A stretch of DNA of 64,000 nucleotides, from contig OZ024741.1 in the NCBI GenBank assembly GCA_964016885.1, forward strand, positions 357,368,001-357,432,000, in the 5' to 3' direction. Positions 2,546 through 5,767 of the stretch are shown here, one piece after another; the stretch's first letter is position 1; every line of letters starts with the position of its first letter. The DNA comes from Eledone cirrhosa (Eukaryota). Below the pieces are notes generated by a model that was not told the DNA's origin, ran no database searches, and was given only the letters and a program-made list of their open reading frames with translations. A program made the position numbers and the translations under genes.

Positions 2546-3535
2546 AAACTTCGTTTTTTAGTTACTGTGGGAATTCTTGGGTTGGGGGGTGAATATTACA
2601 CCTATCAAGTTTTGGAGGTAAAATTTTCATTTTCCCTAAGATTTGGGATATGGTTTAAATGAATATGGCCTTCAAAACAATTGGAAATTATTCGTTTGTG
2701 GAATTAACAAATGGGATAGGTACTCTCAGAGTTCTCGGTTTTGGAGGTAAATATTACACTCGTCTCACTTTGGAAGTGAAATTTATGTTTTTCCTATTGT
2801 TCTTTTTGTTCTGCACGAAAATGAGTTGCAAAACCGGGATCAATAAAGGTAAATACAAGTCAATGAGTGGCAGATCAATTTCATAAAAGTAGCACATTTA
2901 AAAAAAGCAGCTGATTATGTTCGAAAGTATCCCAAAACGAAAACTTTGCTACTAAATTAAAACAGCTTAGAGAGTTATGCCCCTTTGTATTCTGTGTTAA
3001 AATGTTATTTTTTAATCAATAATAAAGAAATACACACACATGCATGCATATATAACACAAATATATAAAAGGATATATATATATTTAACGTAGGAATAAA
3101 CGATTGAGATTGATGTGGTTAGTCGATTAGATTGACTCCTGTACTTCAGTGATCGTACACGGCGGTATCTGAACACGAAGTAAAGAACTAAATACTGCAA
3201 TACATTTATCTGATCCTCCAACGAGTTTGCCAATCCGCCGCTCTAATAATCATTTTAAACCTATACATAAGGTCACAAAAGTCAGGATAATAGGTTAGGT
3301 CGAAGGAAAAAAACGCAAAACTGACTTAGATTTTAAGTAAAGGGAAGCTACTTGGTTTAATTTTTCTAAGGGAGATAAATACAGTATTGAAACACCTATA
3401 TATATATATATATATATATATATATAAACACACATATATATATATATATATATATATATATATATATATATATATATATATATATATATATATACGATAT
3501 TAAATAAATGGAAACTATATTTATAAAACCATATT

Positions 3536-3601
3536 TATTTCATTATATATATTTCAGGGATATCATATTAACAATATGTTATGCCTTCCTCAGACAAAAT
3601 A
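3536..3601 (-). ncRNA. Type I hammerhead ribozyme, intact core (PLE pLTR type)
   Basis: Minus strand reads UAUUUUGU-CUGAGGA-AGGCAUAACAUAUU-GUU-AAUAUGAUAUCCCU-GAAA-UAUAUA-UA^AUGAAAUA: 8-bp stem I, long stem II, palindromic minimal stem III, AUA cleavage triplet. Confidence 0.8.
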
Positions 3602-3942
3602 CAATATAGACAGTTTTATAGATAAATAGATTTGACATACCGTTCAACATCGACTTGTATTTGAAAAAGTTGATTTGGCAGTGAAAAATTGTAAACAGAA
3701 AGAAAGAGAGAAAGAAGGAAAGAAAGAAAGAAAACGTAAATATACTCCAAATACTTGTTGAGTGCTTTTATATCAGTTATAAATATTTACTAGTTGTAAC
3801 CCAACAATTTAAATATAACTTTCCATGTATATATATATATATATATAATGGAAAATATGGTGATAACGGTGTTGATGATAATTATATTTATTGCGGTGGC
3901 GGATATAATATAAGATCAAAAGATGGTTAAAAGAGTTCCAAG

Positions 3943-4013
3943 TATTTTATTATGCGCATTTCAAAAACAAATATCATCATGGAATGATATATGCGTTCTC
4001 ATCAGATAAAATA
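3943..4013 (-). ncRNA. Type I hammerhead ribozyme, intact core (left arm of fold-back)
   Basis: UAUUUUAU-CUGAUGA-GAACGCAUAUAUCAUUCCAUGAUGAUAUUUGUUUUU-GAAA-UGCGCA-UA^AUAAAAUA; perfect 8-bp stem I, palindromic stem III. Confidence 0.82.
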
Positions 4014-4123
4014 GGGAGACATAATATGAAGCTTAAAAAACACTTGTGAATAGTGAAGTTTTAAATCAACATTTAAAACTTCACTATTCACAAATGTTTT
4101 TAAAGCTTCATATCACGTCTCCC

Positions 4124-4194
4124 TATTTTATCTGATGAGAACGCAGATATCATCCCATGATGATATTTGTATTTGAAATGCTCATAATAAAATA
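4124..4194 (+). ncRNA. Type I hammerhead ribozyme (right arm of fold-back)
   Basis: tattttat-CTGATGA-gaacgcagatatcatcccatgatgatatttgtattt-GAAA-tgctca-TA^ataaaata; core intact, stem III loop mutated from tgcgca. Confidence 0.78.
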
Positions 4195-4449
4195 CTTGGA
4201 ACTCTTTTAACCATCTTTTGATCTTATATTATTTATACTCCAGTCCTACAAACTGTAGAGTGCTACTTATCCGATATTTGCATTGCTTTATTGTGCTACA
4301 ATAACACTCACCTCCTACATTATATATATATATATATATATATATATGTGTGTGTGTGTGTGTGTTAGGTATTTCTGTAGAAAGGGTAAAGGAAAAAAGT
4401 GGTCTATGTATTATACACCGCTATTTAATTGCATAATACACAACACTAT

Positions 4450-4530
4450 AATTATTTCATTACCGAGGGTTTCAAGAAAGTAGATGATTCTTGCAAGGAA
4501 CATCCAGTTCGTTCGTCAGACAAAATAATT
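4450..4530 (-). ncRNA. Type I hammerhead ribozyme, intact core, in TA/CA-flanked insert 4365-4535
   Basis: AAUUAUUUUGU-CUGACGA-ACGAACUGGAUGUUCCUUGCAAGAAUCAUCUACUUUCUU-GAAA-CC-CUC-GG-UA^AUGAAAUAAUU; 11-bp stem I, GUA triplet. Confidence 0.82.
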
Positions 4531-4549
4531 GCCACTATATATATATATA

Positions 4550-4661
4550 GTGGCAAAAAAACCAAGAGGTTATATCTGTAGAAAGTGAGCGCACACTTCG
4601 TTATAGAGTTAGTTTCACAACCATACTCGAGTATACTTGTTTCACCCAATGGATTTTCAAT
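4550..4661 (-). mobile_element. PLE-type pLTR fragment with decayed hammerhead
   Basis: Minus strand TTGAAAA-tccattgggt-GAAA-caagtata...; colinear with the 46578-46722 insert (tatggt..gaactaact..ctacRgatataacc); (TA)n flanks. Confidence 0.5.
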
Positions 4662-4760
4662 ATATACATACATGCATGTGTGTGTGTGTAAAAGGTAAAC
4701 AAATAACAAAAGAAACGATACAGTATATGGAGGGGATATAGTAGTTTAGCAGGAAGAGGG

Positions 4761-4796
4761 TCTTAACGTTTCGGACCGCTAGTCCTTCATTAAAAG
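4761..4796 (-). ncRNA. Decayed minimal hammerhead ribozyme
   Basis: tctt-TTAATGA-a-ggac-tagcg-gtcc-GAAA-CG-TT-aaga; stems I and II intact, CUGAUGA box has two transitions. Confidence 0.55.
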
Positions 4797-5767
4797 AAAG
4801 AATGAGAAATTAGAAAGATTGAGGGGACGAGCTGGGGGGGGGGGGGGGGTTAGAGAAAAATAATAGGTCCATTCATGTTGCCATATCATTAAAAAATATG
4901 TGGGACATGTAAAGGAATCAGAAAACTTGGAAAAGACAGACACATGGACAGTTCCCCCACTCATGGGCTATCTTCTGGGAATCATTATATTTCTGGCCAC
5001 ATATGTTCAAAAGGACACATGATGCAGTTTCTTTATATGTAATTTTGCTAAGCTGTAATTTTGTAATTTTTCTTCAGAATTCCTGATTTTCCATAGTTGC
5101 TGCTTGAAATCATTAACTGTGCATGGAAACGATGAAATGTTCAACTGAATAAGATATTGGATACTGATGTTCATGAGTTCAAATTGCAATATAGTCATTG
5201 CTTTATTTTCATTTCATGTTTTTGTTTTGTTTGTTTATGTTAAAAAGAGAGGACATTGAATAATGATGTAATCCTAAATACACTGCTTTCTTTATTTTCC
5301 CCTTTTTATGCTGAACTGCATATCAGTTCATCCTTGGGCAGTTCTAGTAGCAGAGAGCTTATAATCTCTGTCCAATTTTTTAAATGAATGGATTAAAATC
5401 CTCCCATTTTTTCCGTGATGATGATGATGATGATGATTCCTCTTTTTGGTGAAAAAAGTCACTTTATTTCTAGAGAAAGAGAATCTGTGACTCCTATGAC
5501 CCTTTTCACGAATGTAATAGAAAAGAATAAATCCCAGTGCATTGCTGGTATTTTATTTATCAACCCAGAAAGCATGAAAACCAAAGTTTACCTTGATGGG
5601 ATTTGAACCCAGAGCACAGAGATCTATAACAAATACCACAACACATTCTATTTGACTCTCTAATAACTCTGCCAATTCACCACCTTATAGTCAATTTACA
5701 TTGGTCAAGAATAAACAAAGGATGGTTATGGCTGGCCTTAAGCTAAATAACAGAATATCATCTACAT

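Follow-up and report, generated by a model that had tools for sequence, protein, structure and literature searches.

The locus described here, a stack of hammerhead ribozyme motifs lying among (TA)n microsatellites in the genome of Eledone cirrhosa, raises the question of what kind of element left so many ribozymes side by side. The stretch of DNA analysed (hereafter the window) comprises 64,000 nt of contig OZ024741.1 (GenBank assembly GCA_964016885.1, positions 357,368,001 to 357,432,000, forward strand), and the stack occupies positions 3495–4830. A sequence-only reading of the window had proposed six motifs in five inserts, representing either pseudo-long terminal repeats (pLTRs) of Penelope-like elements (PLEs) or non-coding, retrozyme-like families. 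The region very probably consists of five 5′-truncated ends (solo pLTRs) of five PLE families, four of Hydra type and one of Neptune/Nematis type, inserted at TA-rich microsatellites. The insertions, named A–E, were likely independent and made at different times.

The motifs were located with a strict type I hammerhead descriptor, with dinucleotide shuffles of the region (2000) and of the whole window (100) as controls, and with a relaxed descriptor in which a mismatch at the base of stem II is tolerated. Within the region, the strict descriptor matched cores at 3593 (minus), 4005 (minus) and 4132 (plus), compared with none in the 2000 shuffles; it found zero cores in the remainder of the window, the window-wide count of three standing against a shuffle mean of 0.03 and a maximum of 1. 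The relaxed descriptor additionally picked up 4519 (minus), which is the 4450–4530 motif of C. The four cores that had been called intact are present where they had been placed, and the predicted cleavage sites (3543/3544, 3950/3951, 4186/4187 and 4460/4461) agree exactly with the descriptor placement. The core boxes, stems I, II and III and a NUH cleavage site are all found in A and in both motifs of B; C has them apart from a mismatch at the base of stem II, the window copy of D is without the 5′ strand of stem I, and that of E carries two core changes. The features of the stack are as follows.

3397–3494, no strand: (TA)n tract with one interruption, left flank of A
3495–3736, minus strand: inverted pLTR arm of insertion A, carrying hammerhead A; 99–100 % identical to the pLTR of copies bearing an open reading frame (ORF)
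3536–3601, minus strand: hammerhead A, type I, intact core, palindromic stem III, predicted cut 3544/3543
3735–3827, plus strand: sense 3′ tail of insertion A, about 93 nt, ending at (TA)n; 100 % identical to the tails in loci L023, L024 and L026
3828–3847, no strand: (TA)10
3848–3902, no strand: 55-nt piece, unassigned, separating the TA tract from B
3905–4066, minus strand: inverted arm of insertion B with hammerhead 3943–4013, predicted cut 3951/3950
4071–4320, plus strand: sense arm of insertion B with hammerhead 4124–4194 (predicted cut 4186/4187) and 88-nt tail 4233–4320
4321–4364, no strand: (TA)13(TG)9, separating the 3′ ends of B and C
4365–4530, minus strand: insertion C, hammerhead 4450–4530 (predicted cut 4461/4460, imperfect stem II base) and tail
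4531–4556, no strand: (TA)7 with a flanking 6-nt inverted repeat, seen directly in the sequence
4550–4660, minus strand: insertion D, U3-A8 hammerhead family; copy cut at the core (stem I 5′ strand missing), with deletions
4661–4688, no strand: mixed TA/TG tract at the 3′ end of E
4689–4893, minus strand: insertion E, the pLTR end of a PLE of Neptune/Nematis type; its minimal hammerhead has the core at 4793, with two core substitutions

The count of six motifs stood, but two of them (3943–4013 and 4124–4194) are the arms of one 162-nt inverted repeat within a single insertion, B. Delimitation of the inserts by (TA)n or (TG)n was likewise borne out except at the left end of B, which joins the 55-nt piece at 3848–3902. 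This piece had no match besides its own locus among the fetched loci and is absent from other B copies; read on the minus strand, its end resembles the end of the A tail. Insertion C is 5′-truncated just above stem I, and the insert containing the 4761–4796 motif (E) extends to about 4893. At 4531–4556, the 3′ end of D is mirrored across (TA)7 at the 5′ junction of C, which looks like a templated fill-in upon insertion of C beside D.

The notion that structure is kept while sequence is not holds across families. A and C have a common stem I and differing stems II and III, as is visible in the sequence, and 14 of 20 diverse stem II representatives (less than 75 % alike, drawn from 87 inserts chosen by flanking sequence only) fold with z < −2. 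The stem III of C had been taken for palindromic and is actually a 2-bp stem with a 3-nt loop. The 4631–4660 core of D, described earlier as decayed, is of the U3-A8 kind that is normal for its family (27/30 copies have U at position 3 with A at position 8) and retains the 3–8 pair, though the window copy has lost the 5′ strand of stem I; in this family stem III is palindromic and stem I is made of two parts. Decay of the 4761–4796 motif is real in the doubly substituted window copy of E, but not family-wide, the core being canonical in 15 of 19 other copies. A scan of window positions 1–12000 against Rfam yielded 53 matches at E≤10, none of them to a hammerhead family, a result that weakens Rfam family membership rather than hammerhead-like working; a mir-16 match above the gathering score (4026–4111) was rejected, as it is the centre of the B inverted repeat.

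Folding of the monomers by minimum free energy was uninformative save for the B sense arm (z −3.85) and does not yield the active three-way junction, which is the expectation for dimer-type motifs. Dimeric PLE hammerheads are said to have been described by Lünse et al. 2017. Going by the literature, hammerheads in full-length tandem transcripts probably cut as dimers or with protein help. The lone copies in the window are probably inert passengers of the pLTR, because their stem III sequences mismatch one another, the arms of B would pair into a single long hairpin, and both D and E carry damage.

The evidence that ties these ends to PLEs comes from longer copies elsewhere in the same genome (3.0 Gb, 1796 contigs), for which the best 40 candidates were scored per search. 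In loci L023 and L024, a 745-codon frame lies between pLTRs that are 99–100 % identical to insert A. The protein, 737 aa from the Met (L024:4374–6584), contains RWR37, DKT118, YRDD352, a CxCx5C linker at 596, CxxC694 and CxH721, and its GIY-YIG region is without the second internal Cys and without a CCHH finger. The structure model (pLDDT 91, pTM 0.89) has telomerase TERT as its top fold match (E 2.8e-9), and the ORF appears to encode a reverse transcriptase (RT) of telomerase-like type joined to a GIY-YIG endonuclease, the latter assigned by motifs. A Pfam search of the ORF gave 0 hits (E 0.1) and PDB sequence searches gave nothing significant. These results, together with the Rfam scan, bear out the suspicion that protein- and library-based annotation would miss such elements. 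Among database proteins, 164 homologues were found at E≤1e-20, the named ones from Argonauta hians; many homologues come from metagenome contigs, and for one the listed source is a bacterial metagenome-assembled genome.

Hydra-clade PLEs are diagnosed by a C-terminal GIY-YIG, RW[K/R], DKT, a CxCx5C linker and CxxC plus CxH with no CCHH, and nearly all families bear hammerheads and use (TA)n as insertion target (Craig et al. 2021, PMC8557442). Family A appears to belong to this clade, because its protein bears these diagnostics; RWR stands in place of RWK, both being frequent among 72 aligned proteins. Family A copies also show pLTRs, partial tandems, an inverted 5′ copy and a tail. The unit of 3808 nt exceeds the ‘generally under 3 kb’ of the clade, a descriptive rather than defining figure, owing to a 1.5-kb 3′ region. 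Identity with Naiad elements was ruled out, as these have an N-terminal endonuclease and no canonical hammerhead, whereas in family A the endonuclease motifs are C-terminal and hammerheads are present. All 150 matches to the RT region that were scored, among 38,649 candidates, are 95–100 % identical, at least 18 of them lying in a stop-free 745-codon frame, and family A looks to be still active.

For the remaining families, longer copies joined to PLE ORFs were also found, which agrees with the proposal that the inserts are pLTR remnants. Broken ORFs 35–56 % identical to the A ORF lie 0.5–1.2 kb upstream of the B hammerhead in L190, L193 and L194, and a further remnant lies within the inverted arm of L191. 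Profile hits built on the A homologues occur upstream and in sense at 4 of 38 D loci (L092, L136, L139 and L147). A Hydra profile search of 39 C loci gave zero hits; longer C-type copies are nevertheless present elsewhere in the genome, and in a related older subfamily (69–85 % identical over the motif) a near-complete broken ORF is joined upstream in L368/L397, with ORF pieces also in L387, the ORF links amounting to 2 of 30 loci. By similarity to the A ORF or its profile, B, C and D are assigned to the Hydra type. In E, the upstream sequence common to long copies encodes an RT and a GIY-YIG domain with a CX4CxxC linker and CCHH (L241 and L400, broken frames), suggesting a PLE of either the Neptune or the Nematis clade. 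The statement that the window holds no PLE ORF stands for Hydra-type remnants, of which there are none in the window or 10 kb upstream, a search that did not extend to other PLE clades.

All five families are multi-copy. First-look candidates numbered 1715 for A, 1486 for B, 1512 for C and 2010 for E; for D there were 9 with the window copy as query and 2020 with a better copy. Measured against the nearest other copy among those scored, A is 99–100 % identical, B 98 %, C 89 %, E 87 % and D no more than 80 %. Because these identities differ among the insertions, the stack most likely accumulated stepwise over a long time, with the youngest inserts at the left.

The link to (TA)n that had been proposed is reproduced. 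The 3′ ends lie within 20 nt of a TA/CA repeat in 20/20 A, 27/27 B, 28/34 C, 19/30 D and 19/19 E copies (the E query contained a few repeat letters), compared with 12 % of random positions. Six further A copies of 26 run into the 5′ untranslated region (UTR) as internal tandems, and 2 of 29 B tails continue into a 5′ UTR and not TA. Copies of the E family (L072–L090) terminate in (CA)n, to which (TA)n is often joined. When 10-kb stretches of the genome were sampled at 60 even intervals (600 kb), the relaxed descriptor found 32 intact C3-G8 motifs, as against 0–1 in five shuffles, and 27 of the 32 lie within 200 nt of (TA)5+, compared with 25 % at random (p 3e-12). This density, about 53 intact hammerheads per Mb, extrapolates to about 1.6 × 10^5 genome-wide; TA tracts make up 4.3 % of the sample, and 6 of the 60 stretches contain remnants of Hydra-type ORFs. 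With a U3-A8 descriptor, 7 matches were obtained in the 600 kb versus 0–2 in shuffles, 4 of the 7 being discounted as one tandem repeat. A second U3-A8 family, distinct from D, with a long stem II and a palindromic stem III, was seen at L299:2379 and 2974 (plus) and L329:3104 (minus). A further intact type I hammerhead at window position 46128 (minus), 66 nt from a TA tract, represents a sixth family, which was found four times in the random sample, along with one related motif.

The arrangement of the arms is informative as to how such ends are formed. Copies of A, mapped on one natural unit, consist of an inverted arm followed by a sense arm and tail, with TA at both outer ends. Over 20 A loci, the inverted arm ends at a single offset, the tail start, in 14 of 19 cases and within 8 nt of it in the rest, and 16 of 21 tails end at one offset 91 nt beyond the tail start; in the window, the A arm starts exactly at the pLTR body/tail boundary of a Hydra-type element. 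In 20 palindromic B copies, 35 minor variants are mirrored in both arms, as against a mean of 5.9 and a maximum of 19 under shuffled pairing, and 88 variants are confined to one arm, suggesting that the arms of B stem mostly from one template or were later homogenised. Inverted arms occur at 18 of 35 C loci; unlike the Hydra-type families, E gave no extra inverted-arm match in 40 scored loci. An early view of B as a fixed palindromic mini-element was abandoned, having arisen from a biased query (a sense-arm query gave variable 5′ ends), and that of a strictly fixed C 5′ end was weakened by the longer copies. Arm junctions in B and C (window 4067–4070; L034, L041, L064 and L217) gather at short self-complementary words upstream of the hammerhead, which are likely the place where two cDNA ends anneal.

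A similar hairpin is seen near the tail start in A (3743–3764), B (4237–4263) and C, and by eye in D; it recurs just before the start codon in tandem A copies and, again by eye, in the 3′ end of Hydra-2_Amil (PMC8557442 supplement). At random hammerhead sites it was found in 2 of 35 (background 2.4 % per 150 nt), a count to be read knowing that inverted arms are tail-less and that the stem III of A ends the scanned stretch early. The hairpin is a candidate RT-binding site.

These arrangements may be compared with Poseidon_Ac of Anolis carolinensis, the purified protein of which nicked and extended both strands and started cDNA in vitro at two internal sites bounding the tail, its hammerhead cutting only with protein and being dispensable for in vitro insertion (Frangieh et al. 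2024, PMC11167929). The fixed tail boundary of the inverted arms fits this two-site internal priming. We infer by analogy that the Hydra-type families use two-site priming as Poseidon_Ac does, in this case on a target identical to its own reverse complement. The endonucleases of these PLEs would nick TA-rich microsatellites, thereby drawing independent insertions. For A–D, the RT-endonuclease would nick the self-complementary (TA)n target on both strands and prime two cDNAs on one RNA, at the tail end and at the tail start. Both would stop early and be joined, often at short palindromes or microhomology, to leave an inverted arm without tail followed by a sense arm with tail. In A, the first cDNA would be the tail only and the second 242 nt; in B, both would have run about 165 nt beyond the tail. 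Poseidon_Ac resembles the present families in its two RT start sites bounding the tail, the nicking and extension of both strands and the AT-rich target, but it belongs to another clade, its hammerhead overlaps the ORF start and its tail is short, whereas the priming sites are here read from genomic junctions only.

Several observations weigh against the assignment of all five inserts to truncated PLE ends formed in this way. The clade calls are made by motifs and not by a tree; the partner ORFs of D and E are broken remnants; scoring of the best 40 candidates biases the searches towards young copies; and a (TA)n target that predates insertion is inferred from the TA at both ends. The mirrored variants of B could have arisen by arm-to-arm conversion after insertion, while copies with common junctions and one-arm variants (L038/L039; L032/L040/window) hint that whole B palindromes are sometimes copied. 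For C, the ORF link rests on the older subfamily, 69–85 % identical to the window copy, and none of 35 close copies extends upstream in sense, so that the young copies may have multiplied in the form of a non-autonomous stub. A mini-PLE of this kind, its hammerhead and tail acting as a master copy that a Hydra-type RT amplified in trans to give C (and perhaps the palindromic B), fits the start of all 35 close C copies within about 25 nt of stem I, as well as the B junctions held in common. It is nonetheless somewhat unlikely, since longer C-type copies reaching an ORF exist, many of 30 B copies extend far upstream in a search unbiased to palindromes, and stops that gather at short palindromes are able to give recurrent junctions. 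A quite unlikely origin of the inverted arms is the fold-back of one cDNA, or later DNA repair, in place of second priming on the RNA; the mirrored variants and the centring of B and C junctions on short palindromes would agree with it. However, in window A, L027, L028 and L349 the inverted arm contains sequence absent from the sense arm, which one folded cDNA could not supply unless a deletion followed, and second priming is therefore favoured; the fixed end at the tail boundary, moreover, agrees with the two start sites found in vitro.

Whether the inserts are instead non-coding, retrozyme-like elements replicating through circular RNA from their own hammerheads, as had been suggested, can be answered more firmly. 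Type I hammerheads in short dispersed units are common to both, and a 2026 preprint (10.64898/2026.07.22.740005) ties animal retrozymes to PLE pLTRs. Non-LTR retrozymes, however, are head-to-tail tandem repeats without a coding parent that give circular RNAs (PMC7229834), whereas the window units are single or inverted, have variable 5′ ends, end at the PLE tail and not at the cleavage site, and have ORF-linked copies in every family. The retrozyme explanation is highly improbable, and for A, B, D and E it is largely refuted in favour of PLE ends. The proposal that (TA)n tracts are self-renewing landing pads, each insertion splitting and duplicating the tract, which then draws more insertions than other TA tracts, is plausible yet somewhat doubtful. 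Insertions do leave TA on both sides, identity to the closest copy rises roughly from right to left (D, E, C to B, A), and hammerheads of other families are found at 63–122 per Mb near family copies versus 53 at random. Pairs of hammerheads within 1 kb numbered 5, above the 1.35 expected under a uniform distribution (p=0.02) but not beyond the 3.1 expected from TA-tract positions (p=0.20), or 8.4 if length-weighted, a null that is conservative in that present-day tracts are partly the product of insertions. Because the clustering does not exceed the TA-tract expectation, the stack in the window is an extreme of a common pattern.

Much of what is seen here has known counterparts. The Hydra clade, which includes Hydra-1_Obim of Octopus bimaculoides, shares with the present families the protein diagnostics, a type I hammerhead near the 3′ end, (TA)n targets, the inverted 5′-truncated copy and the tail; it differs in that PLE tails of 30–40 bp are reported, compared with about 90 nt in family A, and units are generally under 3 kb rather than 3.8 kb (PMC8557442). 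The Hydra-1_Obim hammerhead of the supplement differs by eye from those of A–D, stems II of A–C being long, and that supplement lists one octopus Hydra family, whereas E. cirrhosa has many, one apparently active. The minimal hammerheads of metazoan PLEs (Cervera and De la Pena 2014, PMC4209133) are likewise type I with a short palindromic stem III, in many diverse families per genome, and are mostly solo motifs from truncated PLEs or opposite-strand pairs 100–700 bp apart. The Schistosoma Cercyon PLEs have the U3-A8 covariant core, which here belongs to a Hydra-type family whose stem II is very short; TA targeting and multi-family stacks are not treated in the accessible parts of that paper. 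Neptune/Nematis PLEs resemble E in the CX2-5CxxC linker ahead of a CCHH-type GIY-YIG, the minimal hammerhead and the microsatellite at the 3′ end, E being known from broken ORFs only. Animal non-LTR retrozymes also carry type I hammerheads in short non-coding units, but the single or inverted PLE ends described here have coding parents. Repeat annotation of Octopus vulgaris lists 31 recently active Penelope-like families, the words hammerhead and ribozyme being unused in its accessible text (PMC13282606). Literature searches on octopus hammerhead ribozymes and the octopus Penelope/Hydra clade, with most subscription papers outside their coverage, returned only Craig et al. 2021 as directly relevant; under the same coverage, a search on nested insertions at microsatellites listed nothing about stacks of this kind.

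Elsewhere in the window, (GAA)n followed by (TTC)n at 6749–6838 forms a perfect hairpin that draws spurious miRNA matches, and an (AAC)n array of great length, about 363 units, at 58858–59945 is followed by a (TCA)n array at 60043–60280.

Published work already covers hammerheads in PLEs, solo pLTRs, pairs on opposite strands, the U3-A8 core and Hydra-clade targeting of (TA)n. The stack is a densely packed case of a known kind of element and stands out chiefly for one seemingly active family. For the genome as a whole, the evidence is evenly balanced on whether it hosts a massive, multi-family and still active Hydra-clade radiation, with some 10^5 intact hammerhead ends and tens of thousands of ORF remnants, primed on both strands of (TA)n at two exact RNA sites and helping to build and subdivide TA microsatellites. 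The abundance in the sample (about 53 hammerheads per Mb; ORF remnants in 6/60 stretches) is invisible to Pfam and Rfam. The origin of inverted pLTRs and the microsatellite bias have been named as open mechanistic questions (Craig et al. 2021, PMC8557442). Family A, with its intact protein, its identical young copies and priming junctions placed to the base on a defined target, is a ready, intact substrate for testing how PLEs form their inverted ends and choose microsatellites.

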